In this document: piece after piece, positions 9,839 through 20,260 of the stretch
Layout of the letters: each line of letters starts with the position of its first letter
Position numbering within the stretch: position 1 is the stretch's first letter
Assembly: GCA_965262455.1 (NCBI GenBank)
Contig: CBDHFH010000003.1
Location: 242,737-306,736 of the forward strand
DNA from: Gammaproteobacteria bacterium
GTDB taxonomy: Bacteria > Pseudomonadota > Gammaproteobacteria > UBA4575
Length of the DNA: 64,000 nucleotides
Direction: 5' to 3'
Position numbers and translations under genes: made by a program
The notes under the pieces: generated by a model
The model's database searches: none
What the model was told of the DNA's origin: nothing
Seen by the model: the letters and a program-made list of their open reading frames with translations, nothing else

Positions 9839-11014
9839 ATGAACCAGGAGGCGAACGTCATTCATTCTCCGGTCAGTTTATATATACACTTGCCCTGGTG
9901 TTTACATAAATGTGCTTACTGTGATTTCAATTCACATGCAACACCAGCCAATGCCTTTCCAGAGCATGCCTATGTGGCAGCGCTGACTAATGATCTACGC
10001 CAAGCGTGCAGAGCCATACAGCAGCGCCCAGTGCAATCAATATTTATTGGTGGTGGAACGCCTAGCTTATTCTCTCCGAAATCCATTGAACGCATTATAT
10101 CTGCATGTCATGAATTCACTGCTGTCGATTCTCAGTGTGAAATAACATTAGAGACAAATCCCGGGACATTTGAGTACCAAAAGTTCGCTGACTTTTTACA
10201 TTCGGGCGTCAACAGACTTTCTATCGGTGTGCAAAGTCTTAATGATCAACATCTGCATGTGCTGGAGAGAATTCATCATAGCGATGAAGCAGTCCAGGCA
10301 ATAGAAATGGCTGCTCATATTGGCTTTGAAAATATCAATGCCGACTTGATGTTTGGTTTGCCTGGTCAGTCAATTGCTGACGCTAAACAAGATATTCATC
10401 ACCTATGTAAATACCCTCTGACGCATATCTCTTATTATCAACTCACACTTGAACCGAATACAGTGTTTTATAGTCATCCACCGGTCTTGCCTAGTGATGA
10501 CGCTATCTGGACGATGCATAACAACGCTATTGAAGTATTACATCAACACGGCTTTGAACGTTATGAAGTGTCAGCCTTTGCACAATCGAATAAACAGTGT
10601 GTACACAATAGCAATTACTGGCAGTTTGGTGATTATCTAGGGATTGGTGCTGGCGCACACACAAAACTCACTACAGACAATGGAATCATCAGACATCAGC
10701 GTACCCGCCAACCGCAGAGTTATATCGACTCTGTGGGCGCAAACTCTCATGTACTACAACAATATGTGGTTGATAACGACTCGCTGATATTCGAGTTTAT
10801 GCTGAATAATTTACGACTTGTGCTTGGATTTAGCGCTGATTCATTCACCCTAGGGACGGGCTTGGCTTGGTCACAGGTCGAATCGAAGATTCAAACGTTT
10901 ATCGATGAGGGTCTGATGGAGCTATGTGGTGAATACTATCGCGCATCATCACTTGGCTACCAATTTTTAGATGAGTTGACACAACGCTTCCTGCCGAACA
11001 AAAAGAGTAATTAA
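9839..11014 (+). CDS. hemW: Radical SAM heme chaperone HemW
   Basis: LYIHLPWCLHKCAYCDF, GGGTPS, HNSNYW; follows rdgB. Confidence 0.93.
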   Translation: MNQEANVIHSPVSLYIHLPWCLHKCAYCDFNSHATPANAFPEHAYVAALTNDLRQACRAIQQRPVQSIFIGGGTPSLFSPKSIERIISACHEFTAVDSQCEITLETNPGTFEYQKFADFLHSGVNRLSIGVQSLNDQHLHVLERIHHSDEAVQAIEMAAHIGFENINADLMFGLPGQSIADAKQDIHHLCKYPLTHISYYQLTLEPNTVFYSHPPVLPSDDAIWTMHNNAIEVLHQHGFERYEVSAFAQSNKQCVHNSNYWQFGDYLGIGAGAHTKLTTDNGIIRHQRTRQPQSYIDSVGANSHVLQQYVVDNDSLIFEFMLNNLRLVLGFSADSFTLGTGLAWSQVESKIQTFIDEGLMELCGEYYRASSLGYQFLDELTQRFLPNKKSN

Positions 11015-11017
11015 TCG

Positions 11018-11215
11018 ATGTATTTAGAATCTATCAGAGCTTCATGCCCTTACTGTGCGGAGCGAATCGAGTTCTTGTTCGAACCTTTGGATAGCGAGCA
11101 GGAGTATATCGAGGACTGTCAGGTATGCTGCCAACCAATTTTGATCAAAATTTCACCAAGCTATTCTGGAGAAAGCTGTCAATTTAGTTGCTTTAGAGTG
11201 GATGAAACAGGCTAA
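11018..11215 (+). CDS. CPXCG-motif cysteine-rich small protein
   Basis: CPYCAE...QEYIEDCQVCCQPI. Confidence 0.8.
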   Translation: MYLESIRASCPYCAERIEFLFEPLDSEQEYIEDCQVCCQPILIKISPSYSGESCQFSCFRVDETG

Positions 11216-11425
11216 ATTTGTGCAATCTAAGGGAAATATCGCTTGCGTTATGCACAGTCAAATATGACGTACATATAATGTCTATACAAAAGTAAAAAAA
11301 CACCCGCGTTATTAAACTGACACTAAAATAATGCTATATAATTCAAAAAGTTACTTCCATGGACAATTTTTAGGCGATTTAACAAACATGCAATAAAACT
11401 CGAGAAATAGACACGCTTTGATTCT

Positions 11426-11460
11426 TCATCCACAGTTTTATCCACAGATTTTGTGGATAA
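11426..11460. promoter_or_regulatory. DnaA-box triad A (DARS-like core) upstream of rpmE
   Basis: TCATCCACA(11426)-gtt-TTATCCACA(11438)-gattt-TGTGGATAA(11452); additional box TTATGCACA at 11248; IHF-like ATTCAAAAAGTTA at 11341. Confidence 0.75.
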
Positions 11461-11606
11461 GTAACGAACCCTAAATTCAACAACTACTTAGCGCTTGTTC
11501 TCAATGATCACATTAAATGTTGAATCTATATTTAATCGCTTCAAGCCCTTGCCATAATCGGCACGAATGGATTATAGTTCCGCCTCAATTTTTAGGCCAA
11601 CACACA

Positions 11607-11813
11607 ATGAAACCCGAGATTCATCCAGAATATAAAACTGTAACCATCAATTGTAGTTGCGGGAACACTTTCGAGACCCAGTCAACATACAATGGCGACT
11701 CAATCAGCCTTGATGTGTGCGCTAAATGCCATCCGTTTTATACTGGAAAACAAAAAATTGTGGATACGGCTGGTCAGGTAGATAAATTCCGTCGCCGCTA
11801 CGGTAATAAATAA
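11607..11813 (+). CDS. rpmE: 50S ribosomal protein L31 (Zn-binding type)
   Basis: [39 protein letters not shown]; start at ATG 11607; candidate sigma70 promoter TTGCCA-N18-TATAGT at 11549-11578. Confidence 0.97.
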
Positions 11814-11863
11814 CACCCTCTTTCTGCGTCTTTAAGCAAATCCAGTCTTAACGTCTTCCTTCA

Positions 11864-11891
11864 GGAACTGATGAGGGATACACGCGTCCAA
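11864..11891 (+). promoter_or_regulatory. Putative sigmaE promoter of the M48 peptidase gene
   Basis: GGAACT-N17-TCCAA. Confidence 0.7.
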
Positions 11892-11986
11892 TGACTATTT
11901 ATTAATGTAAAAGTCTCCTAGAATGAGTTGCCGACATCACATATATCGGCAAAATATATGCCTAAGATGACTAAACTCAATCCCCT

Positions 11987-13435
11987 ATGAATAGAATTTA
12001 TTTAGTTCTTATTATCACTATCGCAGCTTACCTCACTGGCTGCGCTGCAAATCCTGTGACTGGCAAGCAGGACCTTGTTTTCATGTCAGAGAAGCAGGAG
12101 ATTGAATTAGGTCGGCGTTACCACCAGGAAATTCTAAAACAATATAAAGTCTATGAAGACGAACGACTGCAGCAATATGTGAGTGACATTGTTGAGGATT
12201 TGTCTGCGCAGAGCCATCGCAGTGATCTTATATTTCATGCCACCGTGCTCGATAGCCCACAAGTCAATGCATTTGCGTTGCCAGGTGGCTATGTTTATGT
12301 CACACGAGGCATCATGGCTTACATGAATACCGAGGCCGAACTCGCCGGTGTACTTGGCCATGAGATAGGGCACGTCACGGCCCGGCATGGTGTCAGACAA
12401 CAAAGCGCGTCAACTATCGCACAGATCTTCTCAACCGCCGCGGTGATTGCAACTGGTTCAAGGGCCATCGCAGACGCAAGTAATATTGCCGGCACCGCAC
12501 TGATCCGTGGTTATGGACGTGAACATGAACTGGAGGCGGATCGTTTAGGCGCTGAATATATTGCCAAAGTCGGTTATGACCCAGAAGAAATGATTAACGT
12601 GGTCGGCATTCTTAAATCACAGGAAGAATTTGATAAACAGCTGGCCGAAGAAGAAGGTCGCGAGCCACGAGCTTACCATGGACTTTTCTCTACCCACCCT
12701 GCGAATGATCGGCGCCTGCAAGAAGTGATTCGAGCAGCCGATAAGTTTCGCTCTAAAAACAATCGCCCGGATGACGGCACGTTCTTGAAGCTAACTGATG
12801 GTATGACACTCGGTCAAAGTGAGAGAGAAGGCGTGATTCGTGGCAACAAGTTTTACCACAAAGATTTAGACATCACCATGACCTTCCCTGAAGGGTGGCG
12901 CATAGACAACTTGCCTGATCGATTGATCGTATCGAATAAAAGCAAAGATGCGGTCATGCAAGTCACTCTGCGTGACTTGAATAAACGCCAAACACCTAAA
13001 GAATTTATTGAAAGCGAATTTGGTAAAGATCTACGCAGTGATAAAGCGGTCAAGACAGAATCATTTAGTGGCTATACCGCTATAACTAAAACCAAAACAC
13101 CGTTTGGTAAGCAAGACACTCGTATCACCGCATTATTCAAAGGCAAACAAGTTTTTCAAATTCTAGCGGCCGCCAAAGACCCGAGTTTACTCGAAAAACA
13201 TGATAAAGATTTTTTAGCAACTGCAAATAGTTTACGCAAACTACGCAACAATGAAAAAGCACTGGCCAAAGCAAGAAAAATCAAATTGATTACTGCAAAG
13301 AAAGGGGACACATTTGCCAAGTTAGCGAAAAATTCTCCACTTTCCTCTCATGCTGAAGAGCAATTACGCTTGCTTAATGGCATGTATCCCGATGGCGAAC
13401 CATCACCGGGGAAACCAATTAAAATAGTCGAATAG
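11987..13435 (+). CDS. M48 family Zn metalloprotease lipoprotein with C-terminal LysM-like domain
   Basis: Lipobox LTGC; NAFALPGG, HEIGH, ELEAD, STHP; C-terminal KKGDTFAKLA..QLRLLNG. Confidence 0.88.
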   Translation: MNRIYLVLIITIAAYLTGCAANPVTGKQDLVFMSEKQEIELGRRYHQEILKQYKVYEDERLQQYVSDIVEDLSAQSHRSDLIFHATVLDSPQVNAFALPGGYVYVTRGIMAYMNTEAELAGVLGHEIGHVTARHGVRQQSASTIAQIFSTAAVIATGSRAIADASNIAGTALIRGYGREHELEADRLGAEYIAKVGYDPEEMINVVGILKSQEEFDKQLAEEEGREPRAYHGLFSTHPANDRRLQEVIRAADKFRSKNNRPDDGTFLKLTDGMTLGQSEREGVIRGNKFYHKDLDITMTFPEGWRIDNLPDRLIVSNKSKDAVMQVTLRDLNKRQTPKEFIESEFGKDLRSDKAVKTESFSGYTAITKTKTPFGKQDTRITALFKGKQVFQILAAAKDPSLLEKHDKDFLATANSLRKLRNNEKALAKARKIKLITAKKGDTFAKLAKNSPLSSHAEEQLRLLNGMYPDGEPSPGKPIKIVE

Positions 13436-13526
13436 TCAAAGTTAAGTAATAAATCCAAGCGTAAATGTGCTAGTGTTGAGCAATCAAACACCCTGCCGAT
13501 TGTATTTATTTATCTTTATCTAACTC

Positions 13527-14420
13527 ATGGCAAAGCCTACTGCGTATTTAATTGACTCCAGCATTTATGTTTTTCGGGCATGGTACACACTGCCTGATCA
13601 TTTAACGAATAAAAACGGCGAGCCAATGAACGCCGTGTATGGTTTTATAGACTTTGTGGCAAGTTTTTTAGAGGAAACCAACGCCACACATGCCTCTTTT
13701 GCTTTTGACCAAAGTTTAACTAGTTCATTTCGAAATACTATTTATCCACCTTACAAGGCAAATAGAGATCCTGCTCCCGATGAATTAAAACGACAATTTG
13801 ACTATTGTCGCCGCTTTATTGAAGCGGCAGGCTTTCCTCTATTAAGTAGCGATAGATATGAAGCAGATGATTTAATTGGTACTGCAGCATCGCATGCGCG
13901 CTCACAAGGTCACAAGGTGACGATATTAAGTGCAGATAAAGATTTAGCTCAATTAATTGACGAACACGACACCTTATGGGACTACGCAAGAAATCGAAAA
14001 TTTAACCCCAAAAAAGTGAAAGAGCATTTTGGCGTGCGCCCGGATCAAATTGCTGATCAGCTCGCGATTGCTGGAGATAAGGTAGATAATATCCCGGGCG
14101 TTCCAGGCGTTGGTATGACCACCGCGGCACGCTTGCTTACAAAATTCGAAACTATCGAAGGTCTGCTGGAAAACATCTCAGCCATCAGTGACATGGGTAT
14201 TCGTGGTGCCAAACGCATTCAAGGGCTTATTGAAGAACATCAGGATACGATTTTATTATGCAAAAAGCTCACGGAAATCAAATGTGATGCCGAAACAATT
14301 AGCGATGACTTTGAGCTACAGCGCAGTCAATGTGATTACGCGGAGCTAGATGAATTATTCACTGACATTGGATTTGGCAATCTGCGCCGTGAAAAGTGGA
14401 AGAAATTATTACACAGCTAA
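13527..14420 (+). CDS. Stand-alone 5'-3' exonuclease / flap endonuclease (H3TH)
   Basis: LIDSSIYVFRAW, YPPYKANR, EADDLIG, SADKDLAQL, GDKVDNIPGVPGVG; paralogous to the PolA N-terminal domain. Confidence 0.9.
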   Translation: MAKPTAYLIDSSIYVFRAWYTLPDHLTNKNGEPMNAVYGFIDFVASFLEETNATHASFAFDQSLTSSFRNTIYPPYKANRDPAPDELKRQFDYCRRFIEAAGFPLLSSDRYEADDLIGTAASHARSQGHKVTILSADKDLAQLIDEHDTLWDYARNRKFNPKKVKEHFGVRPDQIADQLAIAGDKVDNIPGVPGVGMTTAARLLTKFETIEGLLENISAISDMGIRGAKRIQGLIEEHQDTILLCKKLTEIKCDAETISDDFELQRSQCDYAELDELFTDIGFGNLRREKWKKLLHS

Positions 14421-14431
14421 CCTTCACACGG

Positions 14432-15538
14432 TTATTGATTTGCCCCGATTTGTTTAGCTAACTGCTGTTGCATTTTCTTCTCTGCCGCAAGGTCAGCATT
14501 ATTCTTATAATCCACCAATGGCCAGCCTTGTAAATGTTGCGTGATGAGTTGGTAAATCGCATCAATATGTAAATCTGTGTCATTCAATGCTGGAATATAA
14601 TTAAATGATTCCCCACCAGCCTGCATAAATATTTCACGATTCAACATATCAATTTCCTCTAACGTTTCTACACAGTCTGCCGAGAAGCCTGGGCAAAACA
14701 CATCCACTGATTTGATATTTTCATTAGGCAAAACTTCGAGCGTTTTATCAGTATAAGGTTGCAGCCACTCCTCACGCCCAAAGCGTGATTGAAACGTCAC
14801 TCGCCATTGCGAGTCATTCAAACCAAGCTCCTCAGCTATTAAACGTGCAGTTTTATGGCATTGGCAATGATAAGGGTCTCCAGCAAGCAAATAACGCTTG
14901 GGTAAGCCATGAAAAGAAAATATCAATAGTTGACTTTGGTTTTGTGTCAACCAATATTGTTTGATTCTATCGACGCATGACTTGATGTAGTTTTTATCGT
15001 CAGCATAGTTATTAATAAACCTCAGCTCTGGCATCCAGCGTAATTTATTAAATACACTTGCCACAGCATCGAATGTTGACCCTGTCGTTGAACCGGAGTA
15101 TTGCGGGTATAACGGCATCACCAGTAATCGCGTGACATTTTTATTCTGCATTTCAAGCAAAGCAGACTCAATAGACGGATTGCCGTAACGCATAGCAAAA
15201 TCTATTTCGATAAAGTCTAGTTTGTTTTGACTAAGCTTATCTCTTAAGCCTTGTAGTTGGGATTTGGTGTGCACCATAAGTGGTGAACCCTGGTCTGACC
15301 ATATTTTTGCATATGTGGCCGCACTGCTTTTGGGACGTATTCGCAATATGATTAGATTAAGTACCAACCACCATAAAGGCCGAGGAAATTCAACAACGCG
15401 CGGGTCCCATAAAAATTCAGCCAAGTATTTTCTTAACGCCGCAGGTGTGGCTTCATCAGGGGTGCCGAGGTTGGTAATTAATACCCCGATGTTTTCATTT
15501 GTCGAGTGGTTATAGTCACTTTTCCCTAAGTACTTCAT
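14432..15538 (-). CDS. hemH: Ferrochelatase
   Basis: NLGTP, MRYGNPSI, PLYPQYS, SFHGLP, FQSRFG..WLQPYT, DCVETLEEI; start moved to ATG 15538. Confidence 0.96.
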   Translation of the reverse strand: MKYLGKSDYNHSTNENIGVLITNLGTPDEATPAALRKYLAEFLWDPRVVEFPRPLWWLVLNLIILRIRPKSSAATYAKIWSDQGSPLMVHTKSQLQGLRDKLSQNKLDFIEIDFAMRYGNPSIESALLEMQNKNVTRLLVMPLYPQYSGSTTGSTFDAVASVFNKLRWMPELRFINNYADDKNYIKSCVDRIKQYWLTQNQSQLLIFSFHGLPKRYLLAGDPYHCQCHKTARLIAEELGLNDSQWRVTFQSRFGREEWLQPYTDKTLEVLPNENIKSVDVFCPGFSADCVETLEEIDMLNREIFMQAGGESFNYIPALNDTDLHIDAIYQLITQHLQGWPLVDYKNNADLAAEKKMQQQLAKQIGANQ

Positions 15539-15620
15539 AAGTTTGGCCAGTGCATGTCCGCAAAAGACGACAGCATACAACGACTCTGGTAGAGACTAAA
15601 AGTTTATTGCCAGAAACTTG

Positions 15621-16211
15621 CTAGGAAAACTGTCTCAGCCTTTTATGTAGAGGGCTTGTACGGGGAAAGTGTGCAAGTAGAAATTTCATCTGATCGGCCA
15701 TCACTCTGCGCCCTTGCAAGTAAATATACTCCGCATGGGTTGGCACAAAAGGCACTGCGATTAACTGCATTTTGGCTTGCTCAGGTGTGTAATTTGCTTT
15801 TTGATTGTTGCAACGCTTGCAGGCTGTGACGACATTTTTCCAGGTGTCTTCACCTCCTTGACTAATTGGAGTGACATGGTCGCGTGATAAATCTCTGCGT
15901 GAGAAACGTTCGCCACAATACATGCACAAGTGGGCGTCGCGCTTGAAGAGTGTTTGATTATTTAGCGGGGGAATGTAGCTTTCATGTAAGGATTTGTTGC
16001 TTCCATATGTAGCAATTATCGAATTCACTTCGATAAAGCTGTGCAGACCTGTTTTCGCATTCACGCCGCCGTGCACAATATATAGTGATTCACCACAAGC
16101 ATACGCTACTTGTTCAGAGTAATACAATTTCGTGGCAGCTTGGTAATCAATCCATTCCAGAGGCATGCCCGATACATCTGTCCGTAATACCTGTTGCCCT
16201 AATGCATGCAA
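15621..16211 (-). CDS. HNH endonuclease family protein
   Basis: LFKRDAHLCMYCG...RDHVTPISQGG.DTWKNVVTACKRCNNQK. Confidence 0.9.
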   Translation of the reverse strand: MHALGQQVLRTDVSGMPLEWIDYQAATKLYYSEQVAYACGESLYIVHGGVNAKTGLHSFIEVNSIIATYGSNKSLHESYIPPLNNQTLFKRDAHLCMYCGERFSRRDLSRDHVTPISQGGEDTWKNVVTACKRCNNQKANYTPEQAKMQLIAVPFVPTHAEYIYLQGRRVMADQMKFLLAHFPRTSPLHKRLRQFS

Positions 16212-16324
16212 GTTCCTTACTCCAGACTTGTAAGACGAGTGCTACTCTAATGATAGTCAACACATCTGGCAAGCACTAAAGCGGGATACACAATATGAAA
16301 GTTTTGTTAAACATAATGGTTCAA

Positions 16325-16750
16325 TTAGCGATTTTGCTTTTCCCATTTATGTTTTAATGCTTTTTGCTCCTCTGGGGGTAAGTCTTTGTACCATTGATAC
16401 TTACGCTTAATTTTTTCACGCTCTTCGGGTGGTAGGGATTTAAATTTTTCCCTGCGTTGTTGTACAGCACGCTTTTCTTCTGGTGTCATCTGACTCCATC
16501 GTTGCAAGCGATGTTGAATTTTATTCTTTCGTTCTTGAGGAAGAGAATCCCACTCACGTGTAAGGTGATTAAGCCGCTGTTGACGTTGCGCGGGTAATGT
16601 TGACCAATCATTTTTGATCGGTTCAAGTATGCGTTGCTGATTAGCATTCAACTGTTGCCACTCTATAGCCTCTTGAGAGGATACGGGCGAAATTGTTAGC
16701 AGCATAACTAAACACAGATTAAACAATAAAGTAGTTATGTGCATGCACAT
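16325..16750 (-). CDS. DUF3106-like exported protein with W-x-x-L-P repeats
   Basis: Signal peptide; repeats WQQL, WSTLP, WDSLP, WSQMTPEE, FKSLPPEE, YKDLPPEE; third gene of the ECF operon. Confidence 0.8.
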   Translation of the reverse strand: MCMHITTLLFNLCLVMLLTISPVSSQEAIEWQQLNANQQRILEPIKNDWSTLPAQRQQRLNHLTREWDSLPQERKNKIQHRLQRWSQMTPEEKRAVQQRREKFKSLPPEEREKIKRKYQWYKDLPPEEQKALKHKWEKQNR

Positions 16751-16759
16751 TGCAAACGT

Positions 16760-17116
16760 TTAGCCTTGTGACTCTTGTTGAGACAACCATAGGTAGAAGT
16801 CATACTGTTCATACAAGTCAATATTGGCATCGGCTTCAAATAACACTGCATCGAGCTGCATGTCGTTTACTTCATCAAACTGTAATTGAGGCTGACCAAC
16901 TATTAAAAATCCCGCTAACGCAACAATAGATGCAAACGTTGCAACCCCACCAAACATCGGCCATTTACTCCATATGCGCGTGCTAGCCTGATCATCGAGT
17001 ACTTGTGCACGAGTGATTTGTAATTGATAACGCGTATCTGCATCAAGCTCCTCGACAGAGCGATCAAGTACACTCTTAATTTGTTGATTTAATTTTTCTT
17101 GATTGATATTACTCAT
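16760..17116 (-). CDS. Putative single-TM anti-sigma factor (DUF3619-like)
   Basis: LDRSVEELDADTRYQLQITR, one TM helix, C-terminal DFYLWL; ATG at 17116 overlaps the sigma stop (ATGA). Confidence 0.75.
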   Translation of the reverse strand: MSNINQEKLNQQIKSVLDRSVEELDADTRYQLQITRAQVLDDQASTRIWSKWPMFGGVATFASIVALAGFLIVGQPQLQFDEVNDMQLDAVLFEADANIDLYEQYDFYLWLSQQESQG

Positions 17117-17685
17117 ATGTCTTCTGCTAATAATGATTTCAGTGTACTCATAGCACGTGATAAATGTGTTTTTACACTGCCCTGAGAGCATTTCATAATG
17201 TGTGCTGTTTCTTCAACATCAAATCCTTCCCAAATTCTCAATAATACTGTTTGCCGTTGTCGAAAGGATAACTTGTTAAGCGCTGACTGCAATTTACCCA
17301 TCGAAAAATCCAGCTGTGTTTGCTCCAGAGGCGAGGGTTGACTTGATTCAACTTGCAGCTCCTCATGAGATATGTCTTCTTCATTCGATTTTGACCAATG
17401 CAGCTTACTTCGCACACCCGACCATCGATGCCAGTCCTTGATGCGATTTTGTAAAATTCTATAAAACAAAGGTCGCCATTCCTGACTGGAATGATGAATA
17501 TAACGCTTCATTAGTGATTCCATTGCGTCCTGAACAAGATCCAGTGCATCACTGGCATTACGTGTTTCAATCATCGCCATACGGTATGCACGTTGCTCAA
17601 TCTGACTGTAGAAATTCGCTAGTTCCTGGCGCTGATCTTGTGTAACCTTCAGGACGATTTCCTCATTACATGGTTCATAATACAT
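17113..17685 (-). CDS. ECF RNA polymerase sigma factor
   Basis: DALDLVQDAM, FYRILQNRI.D, LS.RQRQTVLLR.WEG.DVEETA..M.CSQGSVKTHLSRA. Confidence 0.92.
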   Translation of the reverse strand: MYYEPCNEEIVLKVTQDQRQELANFYSQIEQRAYRMAMIETRNASDALDLVQDAMESLMKRYIHHSSQEWRPLFYRILQNRIKDWHRWSGVRSKLHWSKSNEEDISHEELQVESSQPSPLEQTQLDFSMGKLQSALNKLSFRQRQTVLLRIWEGFDVEETAHIMKCSQGSVKTHLSRAMSTLKSLLAEDI

Positions 17686-17722
17686 ACAGGCTTAACCCAG
17701 TTTAATAGCCACTTAATTCTAA

Positions 17723-17751
17723 TAACGATTGATCTTTAAGTCAGGTTGACA
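17723..17751 (-). promoter_or_regulatory. Putative autoregulatory ECF promoter
   Basis: Minus strand TGTCAACC-N16-CGTTA (AAC-N17-CGT geometry typical of ECF promoters) directly upstream of the sigma gene. Confidence 0.6.
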
Positions 17752-17957
17752 AGCAACCAGAAGGCAAACCTATTGCGCTTACTTAAAGAGGTTTATTCAC
17801 AATCAACATTAAAGTTATGTGAATTCTAGCTGGTTTCTCGCGGCCTGATAGAATTTACTCTAAGTGTATGATTTTTATGCAAGAAAGTTTGTATGCCGGT
17901 TGATCAATCTAAAAATAATGCGCTAGAAATACCTCTTCTAGGGACTTATTCGTATTC

Positions 17958-17992
17958 TTTTCCACATATTTATCCACAGCTTTTGTGGATAG
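17958..17992. promoter_or_regulatory. DnaA-box triad B (DARS-like core) upstream of priA
   Basis: TTTTCCACA(17958)-tat-TTATCCACA(17970)-gcttt-TGTGGATAG(17984); additional boxes TTATTCACA 17793 and CGATCCACA 17999; IHF-like AATCATACACTTA (minus strand, 17861-17873). Confidence 0.75.
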
Positions 17993-18049
17993 AAATTTCG
18001 ATCCACAAGACGCTTTATCTAACAATCTTCATGAACTAATTCTTTTAGA

Positions 18050-20260
18050 ATGATGACCTCAAAGAAGTTTGCTCAAGTGGCTATAGACTCACCCTTGAGA
18101 CAATTATTCGATTACCAAATTCCGAGTGAATTCGAGCACATCGAACCTGGCACACGTGTACTCGTGCCGTTTGGTCAGCGAAAGGTCGTAGGGATCATCA
18201 TCCACCTCACTCACGAGAGCAACATCAATCTTGCACGTATAAAAAATATTCACTCTGTGCTTGATCAGCAAGCCGTTTTTGATCAAGAAAGCTTCTCACT
18301 AATCAAATGGGCCACTCGCTACTATCACTTTCCTTTAGGCGCAGGTTTATTTAGCGCATTACCACCTGCTTTGCGCAAAGCCAATCAAAGCACGCGCATT
18401 GATGGTGAGAACACCTGGATGATTAGCCCTGACGCAATGCTTGCTGAGCTCAGTCGAGCTCCTAAACAAGCAGAAATTTTTGCCTGGTTAACCAAACAGG
18501 CTAATGAAGTGACAGCTACCATGCTGAATACACAATTCCCAAATAGTCACTCAGCCATTCATGCTCTCGAAACACGGGGATTTATTAATAAACAATCGGC
18601 CACTAATGACAGCCCACACATTGAGCAGGTAAACCCTGTAGCAATTAAATTAACCAATGAGCAACAGACTGCGTGTAAGTGTATTACTCAATCAATTGAT
18701 GAATTTAATGTAACACTGCTTGAAGGCGTGACGGGGAGTGGCAAAACTGAAGTCTACTTTAGTGCTATTTCTCATATCTTATCCCGCAATGCGTACGCCC
18801 AAGTGCTTATATTAGTGCCTGAGATTGGCTTAACACCACAATTACATGACCGCTTGATTGATTACTTCGGCATTAACATTGGTTTATTGCATTCAAATAC
18901 ATCTGCAAAACAACGCAAGCTTACTTGGCTAAAAATAGCCAAAGGTGATATTCGAATCATTCTAGGAACACGTCTTGCGGTGTTTACCCCGATACCGCAT
19001 CTCGCATTGATCATTATTGATGAAGAGCATGACGCTTCGTTAAAACAGCAAGAAGGGTTTCTCTATCATGCTCGTGATGTAGCGATTTACCGCGCCAAGC
19101 AAATGAATATTCCCATTGTATTAGGCTCCGCGACACCTTCATTTGAGTCTCTACATAATTCACAACTTAAAAAATACTCCCACGCACAACTGCAAAAGCG
19201 TGCGCTCTCTAGTGACATGCCCGACATTGAGTTAGTGGATATGCGCGCAGAACCGGCAGTAGCACCACTCTCCACACCCTTACTGCGTGCAATGAGTAAA
19301 CACCTAAGCGCTGGCCAACAAGTGATTTTATTTTTAAATCGTCGCGGTTATTCACCTGCTTTACTTTGTCACGACTGTGGTTGGGTAGCACAGTGTGATC
19401 GTTGTGATGCCAATATGACCTATCACAGTCAAAGTAATCAATTGATCTGTCATCATTGTGAACGCACACGCCGTAAACACGCGGTCTGCCCACAATGTCA
19501 TTCGACTAATCTCATCATGTTGGGTCATGGCACACAACGCATCGAAGAAACGCTGCTAAAAGAATTTAAGCAATATTCCGTTGTGCGCCTAGATCGAGAT
19601 GTGACTCGCCGTAAAGGGTTACTCGAAACAATTTTAAAAGAGATACGCCAACATAAACACCATATCATTATAGGCACACAAATCTTATCCAAAGGACATG
19701 ATTTTCCTAATGTATCTTTAGTCGGCATACTCGATATTGATTATGGTATTCATAGCGCCGACTTCCGTGCCTTAGAACGAAATGCACAGCTACTGGTACA
19801 AGTCGCTGGGCGCTCGGGTCGTCGCGAAACTAAGGGACATGTGATTGTCCAGACACATACCCCAGATCATCCTCTACTGTCGACATTAGTTAAATACGGA
19901 TATAGCTCTTTTGCCAAACAGGCATTGGCGCTGCGCTCTGAATGGAAGCTACCGCCATATACATATCACATTGCTATTCGCGCACGTAGCCACAATAGTG
20001 GTGATTTATTAACATTTTTAGACAAAGCCAAATCACTATCTGCCCAATTACTGCCGGATGAAATTACAGTTCAAGGGCCCATTAACGCCTCAATGGAAAA
20101 AAAAGCCGGCCAATATCGCGCATTCATTTTACTCACCATGAACCGACGTGGCATTTACACACAACACATCAATGATTGTTTAACTCAGCTAGATTCACTG
20201 AAAGCAGCAAAAAAAGTCAAGTGGAGTATAGATGTCGACCCGATTGATAATTTTATTTAA
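18050..20260 (+). CDS. priA: Primosomal protein N' (PriA)
   Basis: RVLVPFG, GVTGSGKTEVY, DEEHD, LNRRGY, CxxC Zn motifs, KGHDFP, QVAGRSGR, WSIDVDP. Confidence 0.97.
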   Translation: MMTSKKFAQVAIDSPLRQLFDYQIPSEFEHIEPGTRVLVPFGQRKVVGIIIHLTHESNINLARIKNIHSVLDQQAVFDQESFSLIKWATRYYHFPLGAGLFSALPPALRKANQSTRIDGENTWMISPDAMLAELSRAPKQAEIFAWLTKQANEVTATMLNTQFPNSHSAIHALETRGFINKQSATNDSPHIEQVNPVAIKLTNEQQTACKCITQSIDEFNVTLLEGVTGSGKTEVYFSAISHILSRNAYAQVLILVPEIGLTPQLHDRLIDYFGINIGLLHSNTSAKQRKLTWLKIAKGDIRIILGTRLAVFTPIPHLALIIIDEEHDASLKQQEGFLYHARDVAIYRAKQMNIPIVLGSATPSFESLHNSQLKKYSHAQLQKRALSSDMPDIELVDMRAEPAVAPLSTPLLRAMSKHLSAGQQVILFLNRRGYSPALLCHDCGWVAQCDRCDANMTYHSQSNQLICHHCERTRRKHAVCPQCHSTNLIMLGHGTQRIEETLLKEFKQYSVVRLDRDVTRRKGLLETILKEIRQHKHHIIIGTQILSKGHDFPNVSLVGILDIDYGIHSADFRALERNAQLLVQVAGRSGRRETKGHVIVQTHTPDHPLLSTLVKYGYSSFAKQALALRSEWKLPPYTYHIAIRARSHNSGDLLTFLDKAKSLSAQLLPDEITVQGPINASMEKKAGQYRAFILLTMNRRGIYTQHINDCLTQLDSLKAAKKVKWSIDVDPIDNFI

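Follow-up and report, generated by a model that had tools for sequence, protein, structure and literature searches.

The DNA analysed here (the window) is a 64,000-nucleotide stretch of a gammaproteobacterial genome (assembly GCA_965262455.1, contig CBDHFH010000003.1, positions 242,737 to 306,736) in which two clusters of boxes for the initiator protein DnaA lie upstream of rpmE, encoding ribosomal protein L31, and of priA, encoding the primosomal helicase. Read directly from the sequence, the core of the priA cluster (window 17958–17992) is TTTTCCACA tat TTATCCACA gcttt TGTGGATAG and that of the rpmE cluster (window 11426–11460) is TCATCCACA gtt TTATCCACA gattt TGTGGATAA. Their layout is common: two boxes of the same sense separated by 3 nt, then an inverted box after 5 nt. 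The two triads are on the same strand, 6,532 bp apart. Core boxes are ordered III-II-I and offsets are counted from box III. Each triad is part of a composite of about 215 bp that comprises a distal DnaA box, a site resembling those of the integration host factor (IHF), a Fis-like site and the core. The composite upstream of rpmE is called module A and the one upstream of priA module B; their parts are listed in Table 1. Flanks were scanned with the consensus sequences TTWTNCACA (DnaA box), WATCAANNNNTTR (IHF) and GNNYANNNNNTRNNC (15-nt Fis consensus). The IHF and Fis assignments are degenerate consensus matches and are credible only through the positional peaks described below.

Table 1. Parts of modules A and B and adjoining genes. 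Positions are those of the window; conservation values come from the genus alignments.
Feature	Position	Strand	Remarks
Module A distal DnaA box, TTATGCACA	11248..11256	+	offset -178; genus-conserved
Module A IHF-like site, ATTCAAAAAGTTA	11341..11353	+	offset -85; 1 mismatch; perfect consensus in several genus members
Module A Fis-like site, GGACAATTTTTAGGC	11361..11375	.	offset -65; 0 mismatches; adjoining genus-conserved block 0.80
Module A core triad III-II-I	11426..11460	+	box II, 5-nt spacer and box I invariant in 15/15 genus sequences
rpmE promoter-like site, TTGCCA-18-TATAGT	11549..11578	+	about 90 bp past the triad; genus-conserved; consensus match only
rpmE, ribosomal protein L31	11607..11813	+	Pfam Ribosomal_L31
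Extracytoplasmic function (ECF) sigma factor gene, divergent from module B	17113..17685	-	Pfam Sigma70_r2/r4, Sigma70_ECF
Module B distal DnaA box, TTATTCACA	17793..17801	+	offset -165; genus-conserved block 0.74
Module B IHF-like site, AATCATACACTTA	17861..17873	-	offset -97; 1 mismatch to WATCAANNNNTTR; conserved block 0.80
Module B Fis-like site, GTATGCCGGTTGATC	17891..17905	.	offset -67; 1 mismatch to GNNYANNNNNTRNNC; weakest part of module B
Module B core box III, TTTTCCACA	17958..17966	+	conservation 0.92 in 16 genus sequences
Module B core box II, TTATCCACA	17970..17978	+	perfect consensus, 3 nt past box III; invariant in 16/16 genus sequences
Module B core box I, CTATCCACA on the - strand	17984..17992	-	head-to-head with box II over 5 nt; conservation 0.94
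priA, primosomal helicase	18050..20260	+	Pfam PriA_3primeBD, DEAD, Zn_ribbon_PriA, PriA_C

Single DnaA boxes are not enriched in the window (21 at one mismatch or less against 18.2 expected from shuffles), and the whole 2.58-Mb assembly holds 29 perfect ones. Groups of at least three boxes (one mismatch or less) within 100 bp are found genome-wide only at triads A and B. The triad geometry, searched with up to two mismatches in total, likewise returns only these two in the 2.58-Mb genome, and the composition-based chance expectation for such triads is 2.8e-6 per genome. Outside the motifs, the spacers of A and B fail to align. The first-pass annotation, made from the letters of the window, had described a second triad with identical N3/N5 geometry 6.5 kb away, upstream of priA, between otherwise dissimilar flanks, and had attributed it to selection on box geometry rather than to recent duplication. 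Sequence and alignment bear out the distance, the geometry and the dissimilar flanks, the genus conservation given next agrees with selection, and the count of two copies disposes of the objection that the motif is a generic repeat.

When up to three mismatches were allowed, the triad pattern matched 35 of 41 genomes (the source genome and 40 relatives, which as related genomes are not independent counts), against 0/41 for the backwards pattern that served as control in the genome surveys. All 15 other genomes of the genus matched, 13 with two copies, one with a single copy (G002) and one with three (G007). One copy always occupies the spacer between a CPXCG/hemN-like gene and rpmE and the other lies upstream of priA; copies that share a contig are 5.2–6.5 kb apart. 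In genus alignments anchored on the cores (16 module B and 15 module A regions), the boxes are conserved at 0.92–1.00 versus 0.3–0.5 for the flanks. Ordinary spacer windows score 0.29–0.50 and the 5' coding sequence of priA 0.6–0.7. Further peaks are observed at -180..-141 (0.74, distal box block) and at -100..-81 (0.80, IHF-like block). These blocks are kept where the upstream gene differs (G011, G001 and G005), which assigns them to the module rather than to the ECF sigma gene.

The same alignments sort the remaining features that had been noted around triad B. The additional box at 17793 fits TTWTNCACA and is conserved in the genus, and the IHF-like site placed about 85 bp upstream lies within a conserved block. 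The sequence at 17999, also noted as an additional box, departs from the consensus at two or more positions and lacks conservation in the genus, and we no longer count it as a box. An ATTCTT lead-in is indeed present at both triads in the source genome, but it is not conserved across the genus and is therefore coincidental rather than a selected feature.

In four of the five sister genera examined within the family (G021 L188, G016 L189, G020 L191 and partly G023 L190), the module upstream of priA lacks box I. These box-I-less modules have a distal TTATTCACA at -164 and, with a 3-nt gap between them, perfect copies of boxes III and II, the latter of which ends 2 nt ahead of the priA start codon in G021.

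Spacing was then assessed across the class. For the gap between boxes II and I, a sample of 201 genomes, one per family, was searched for perfect head-to-head boxes with 0–14 nt allowed between them (the tallies, not the listed sites, take in G165). Ninety-two of the 201 genomes matched, against 1/201 for the control. Among the matches listed, 74 of 75 have exactly 5 nt and one has 6; there are a further 61 sites beyond those. With 0–12 nt allowed before box II, 39/101 genomes matched (control 0/101) and the gap was 3 nt in 50 of 59 rows. Outside the class, the strict triad was found in 14 of 68 genomes of other classes in a phylum sample (control 0/91). A scan of named contigs for the strict triad returned at least 117 stretches, among them Lysobacterales, Cycloclasticus, Woeseiaceae, Legionella, Pseudomonas, Nitrosomonas, Bordetella, Oxalobacteraceae and others; 80 loci on 79 contigs were examined.

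Alignment of 73–76 named Gamma- and Betaproteobacterial loci on box III revealed that the flanking sites also sit at fixed offsets. Over 73 loci, matches to the DnaA consensus peak at -180..-161 (33 against 0–2 per other flank bin), and those to the IHF consensus, at one mismatch or less, peak at -100..-81 (47 matches, 13 of them perfect, against 0–6 elsewhere). A distal box at -165 or about -178 is present in 55 of 76 named loci, -178/-177 being the commonest offset (21 loci). The minus-strand IHF consensus peaks class-wide at -100..-96, with the plus strand at -86..-82 as a minor mode. The Fis-like 15-nt consensus peaks at -66, where 42 of 73 loci match at one mismatch or less and 19 perfectly, while the 14-nt Fis consensus as printed in PMC11724364 showed no positional peak across the loci. 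The offsets of modules A and B match these class-wide peaks. The distance from core to gene start varies from 33 to 250 bp while the internal offsets are rigid, and this combination is easier to reconcile with a nucleoprotein complex acting autonomously than with an operator tied to one position in a promoter. Together, these results show that the two triads are members of a widespread but little-described module family.

The named-contig sample, 80 loci out of at least 117 stretches, demanded the strict core, so the context frequencies drawn from it are not unbiased. priA lies directly downstream in the same orientation at 19 of them (18 contigs), including L123 from the source genus. The order hemN-like gene, module, rpmE is found at 16 loci and the module lies beside xseA at seven; the remaining contexts are varied, with genes for an Exonuc_X-T_C protein and a TatD DNase as other recurrent neighbours. 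The priA-linked form is carried by Cycloclasticus, Lysobacterales and Oxalobacteraceae, and also by genomes G188, G211, G036 and G030. In at least two further families, an rpmE-linked and a priA-linked module share one contig. The pair in G188 is 17.3 kb apart and again has a divergent ECF sigma gene; in G211 the distance is 39 kb and the order priA-argS is that of the window.

Some genomes carry the core in high copy number (eight perfect head-to-head pairs in G213, six strict triads in G260 and five triad sites in G078), and two named loci, L092 and L141, adjoin transposase genes. Many copies and transposase neighbours indicate that the module can be multiplied.

The cycle between DnaA-ATP and DnaA-ADP, with its DnaA-reactivating sequences (DARS), has been worked out almost only in Escherichia coli, where DARS1 and DARS2 were reportedly defined by Fujimitsu et al. 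in 2009. We scanned both loci of E. coli K-12 MG1655 with free spacings. The DARS1 core reads TAATACACA tgg TTATCCACA ggaat AGTGGATAA and the DARS2 core TTCTTCACA act CTATCCACA gaaaa GGTGAATAA, so that DARS1, DARS2 and modules A and B are alike in their N3 and N5 spacings and in the inverted last box. The first-pass annotation had noticed this box geometry without recognising its identity with the E. coli DARS core. With up to three mismatches, the pattern has DARS1 as its sole match on the E. coli K-12 chromosome (4.64 Mb), DARS2 being missed with its five mismatches, and finds only triads A and B in the source genome; a blastn comparison of E. coli genomes with the triad region gave no useful match. 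Excerpts of PMC6868365 (Sugiyama et al. 2019) describe DARS boxes I and II as head-to-head over 5 bp, with a full-consensus box II, and ADP as released through the head-to-head contact via Gln208. An excerpt of a review (PMC5742627, Katayama 2017) states that box spacing is equal in DARS1 and DARS2. In both modules, boxes I and II are head-to-head over 5 bp, boxes III and II are head-to-tail over 3 bp, and box II (TTATCCACA) is perfect.

The resemblance to DARS2, which occupies the rppH/ygdT-mutH spacer, extends beyond the III-N3-II-N5-I core with its inverted box I. The E. coli DARS2 flank has an IHF-like site at -87..-75 beside a PciI site and a perfect box at -185..-177, which is taken to be box V; according to PMC11724364, a PciI site overlaps the IHF-binding sites IBS1-2 of DARS2 and the IHF site lies roughly halfway from the core to the Fis sites. 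On the box III side, both DARS2 and the modules have an IHF-like site at about 75–97 bp and a consensus DnaA box at about 165–185 bp from the core; a Fis-like consensus in the flank is also common to them. They differ in location, the modules being origin-proximal at priA and rpmE and DARS2 lying at mutH, and in their boxes, which are nearer consensus in the modules (two and one mismatches versus five in DARS2). DARS1, in the 101-bp bioD-uvrB spacer, has the same core geometry and perfect box II and is also located before a DNA-repair or replication gene. However, according to reviews it needs neither IHF nor Fis and has a regulatory flank of about 50 bp, whereas the modules have conserved IHF- and Fis-like sites and a distal box. 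Position gives no orthology with DARS1 or DARS2, since the only two triads of the genome lie upstream of rpmE and priA and not in a uvrB or mutH spacer.

The source genome encodes Hda (TIGR03420, 230.8 bits versus a cut-off of 194.8), Fis (NF001659, 118.4 bits versus a cut-off of 99), IHF alpha, IHF beta and HU. Its DnaA is 66% identical to E. coli DnaA in alignment, with a nearly identical domain IV. The Gln208/Val211/Leu214/Gln215 stretch (HSERFVQDMVKALQ) and Leu290 (GWGL) are identical to those of E. coli. The proteins expected of a host with active DARS, Hda and a DnaA with Gln208 and Leu290, are therefore present, and with IHF and Fis they add to the likeness to DARS2.

What is established here is how the modules are built, that they are conserved and rare, and that the host has the proteins required. 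Judged on these features, module B (about 17793–17992) and its twin (about 11248–11460) are probably DARS2-type DnaA-reactivating sequences, and the most economical reading is a nucleotide-exchange element of DARS2 type that, as in E. coli, occurs in two copies. By analogy with E. coli, ADP-DnaA produced by Hda-dependent hydrolysis would bind such an element at its perfect box II and recruit further protomers to its two neighbours, box III at a 3-nt gap in head-to-tail arrangement and box I at a 5-nt gap in head-to-head arrangement. ADP would be released when the AAA+ domains meet head-to-head, and apo-DnaA would then depart, bind ATP and regain initiation competence. IHF bound about 97 bp upstream would bend the DNA, bring the distal DnaA box and the Fis-like site to the core, and thereby make activity depend on cell cycle or growth phase. 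As the element lies between the upstream region and priA, DnaA occupancy would probably also affect priA transcription.

Several observations weigh against this assignment. Box I, the box essential for ADP release in E. coli, is absent (6–8 mismatches) upstream of priA in the four sister genera; these keep the other boxes, so DnaA binding before priA is selected independently of the head-to-head pair. Box arrangement alone is no proof of activity, since DARS1 and DARS2 were picked, according to an excerpt of PMC5835720 (Hansen and Atlung), from 52 similarly arranged E. coli box pairs, for most of which the arrangement did not predict activity. The order of parts differs as well: counted outward from the core, the modules have the Fis-like site first and the IHF-like site after it, whereas in DARS2 the Fis sites lie beyond IHF; the distal box has the opposite orientation. 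In module B, the Fis-like and the IHF-like site each have one mismatch. The constant orientation toward priA, rpmE or xseA over large distances would also fit gene regulation. Finally, the modules lie at about 6–8% of the chromosome from dnaA. This origin-proximal position resembles that of E. coli datA rather than those of DARS1 and DARS2.

A regulatory role at priA is a serious rival, although not an exclusive one, the two readings being compatible. In its strong form, the modules are primarily DnaA operators: triad-bound DnaA together with IHF would repress or roadblock priA (rpmE at the twin) and tie expression to initiator status, and the DARS-like geometry would merely give cooperative high-affinity binding. 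We keep this rival because the sister genera point to selection for DnaA binding that is independent of the head-to-head pair: they retain the distal box and two perfect tandem boxes before priA without box I. It is also favoured by the unchanged orientation of the module where it directly precedes priA (18 named contigs, G188, G211, G036 and G030), and by recurrent neighbours that are DNA-metabolism genes (xseA at seven loci, Exonuc_X-T_C and TatD DNase genes; uvrB and mutH in E. coli). A -10-like TATGAT at 17867–17872, conserved in the genus 86 bp upstream of triad B, could place the triad in a transcribed leader, but it is equally the reverse complement of the IHF-like core, the two readings being indistinguishable. 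Known DnaA-box operators (dnaA, nrdAB, uvrB P3) resemble the modules, and the box-I-less sister modules before priA, in having boxes directly upstream of a gene; however, they consist of one or two boxes at a promoter, without a rigid 215-bp IHF/Fis composite. Here the distance from triad to gene start ranges from 33 to about 250 bp against rigid internal offsets. Unrelated genes also follow the composite: rpmE, and those of 36 "other" contexts among 76 loci. DnaA-mediated repression is not known to involve a head-to-head spacing kept strictly at N5, as it is at 74 of the 75 listed sites. We therefore regard an operator as the primary function as unlikely, while still to be reckoned with.

The distance between the modules and dnaA, conserved in the genus at 164–184 kb (source genome, G006, G008 and G011), would suit a sink of datA type. 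Such a cluster lies close to the origin, depends on IHF and, once initiation has occurred, either titrates DnaA or promotes hydrolysis of DnaA-ATP, an effect contrary to that of DARS. [quoted passage not shown] Each module, however, has only four consensus-class boxes, and its core matches the DARS cores exactly rather than the minimal datA described in those excerpts. The head-to-head pair is the feature that PMC6868365 ties to ADP release. The published datA box set is different, datA acts on DnaA in the opposite sense to DARS, and the N5 plus N3 arrangement is not a published datA signature (datA being compared through its published description). A datA-type function appears improbable. A secondary or cryptic replication origin, or its remnant, would account for DnaA boxes and an IHF-like site in an AT-rich spacer beside a replication gene, but on contig C3 the cumulative GC skew keeps declining across the whole window and does not turn before about 425 kb, at dnaA-dnaN. 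An array of same-sense boxes is also missing, two near-identical architectures lie 6.5 kb apart (up to eight copies per genome elsewhere), and the same module occupies many unrelated spacers, which together make this explanation very hard to sustain. We give even less credit to a chance cluster or a functionless mobile repeat resembling a miniature inverted-repeat transposable element. The copy numbers of G213 and G260 and the transposases next to L092 and L141 would be in its favour; against it stand the expectation of 2.8e-6 per genome, only two copies with dissimilar flanks in the source genome, synteny of both in 15/15 other genus genomes and backwards controls of 0/41, 0/101 and 0/91 genomes. 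At this locus, the conservation data refute a chance cluster or interspersed repeat.

The dnaA gene (C3:424639–425973) is located at the skew minimum, 164–171 kb from the triads. That the triad region might itself be oriC, an objection raised at first pass, was checked by GC skew and dnaA position and is ruled out, with no skew switch in the window and both dnaA and the skew minimum 164–171 kb off. The dnaA-dnaN spacer (C3:425974–426212; L001 2512–2750), also at the skew minimum, is very AT-rich and contains two perfect DnaA boxes in opposite orientation. It is likely oriC, placed downstream of dnaA.

Both modules are old. An ancestral rpmE/priA intergenic element retained twice after rearrangement, as had been suggested from the neighbourhood of the two genes elsewhere, is not supported as stated, because each module is complete and co-oriented with its own gene, which the splitting of one divergent spacer would not give. 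The coexistence of separate rpmE- and priA-linked modules in two other families, 17 and 39 kb apart, also speaks against it, and the E. coli priA-rpmE spacer holds no triad, only two boxes with two mismatches each. A wider scenario, which we consider doubtful, is that the 215-bp composite is an ancestral, phylum-wide DnaA-recharging element of Pseudomonadota, that DARS2 at mutH is a relocated derivative and that gene placement reflects real cis-coupling. If so, the placement before priA, xseA, uvrB and mutH would mean that ADP-DnaA occupancy of the core sets the expression of restart and repair genes while ATP-DnaA is regenerated. A freshly replicated cell could then tune its restart capacity and re-initiation via one nucleoprotein complex, and the box-I-less sister modules would represent the "regulation-only" half of a dual function.

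In the literature consulted, DARS cores are described only in E. coli-related Gammaproteobacteria and Vibrio cholerae, at uvrB and mutH, the published DARS-like sequences being located there in excerpts of PMC6090056 and PMC4245941. Full-text searches returned nothing that joins "DnaA box" with rpmE and priA, although an earlier species listing of such sites may exist, and a single review for "DARS-like" together with DnaA. With a DARS2-like module in 39/101 sampled families of the class and also outside it, cultured Beta- and Gammaproteobacteria would allow a direct test of how general DnaA reactivation is. Nucleotide exchange and gene regulation could be told apart by comparing the paired modules at rpmE and priA and the variants that naturally lack box I. 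For the present locus the result is mostly classificatory and adds one more member to the module family.

Concerning the surroundings of the triads, promoter scans gave only consensus-level matches that are no commoner than in shuffles, no intrinsic terminators were found around either triad, and no RNA family was detected at E<=0.1 in window 11000–18300. Module A lies between a CPXCG zinc-ribbon gene and rpmE; with the L31 frame (11607–11813) as query, rpmE was found downstream of the triad in 21/21 family loci examined. Two in-frame ATGs open priA (window 18050–18055). The second, at 18053 (ATGAC), is kept in the genus alignment and the annotated start is therefore probably 3 nt too early.

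A symmetric four-box form is present in G117 (C17:18805–18841; C5), where a box III-like CACA lies 3 nt off the perfect pair on both sides. Locus L078, titled a metagenome-assembled genome (MAG) of Candidatus Planktophila lacus, carries the gammaproteobacterial order hemN-like, module, rpmE, M48; since its label is actinobacterial, it is probably misbinned. The label of L098 (Rickettsiaceae MAG) may also be doubtful.

The order ECF sigma gene, module, priA is also observed in L064, L105 and G188. Because an ECF homologue recurs there in distant families (L064, L105, L117 and G188 = L181), this arrangement is old. In the window, the ECF sigma gene is followed downstream by a 143-aa open reading frame without Pfam match and a DUF3106 gene (16325–17685, minus strand). 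An HNH endonuclease gene (15621–16211, minus strand) separates hemH from this DUF3106/ECF-sigma operon. In G011, the ECF operon is missing and a homologue whose product is 90% identical to the HNH endonuclease of the window adjoins the priA module, which suggests local rearrangement around module B.

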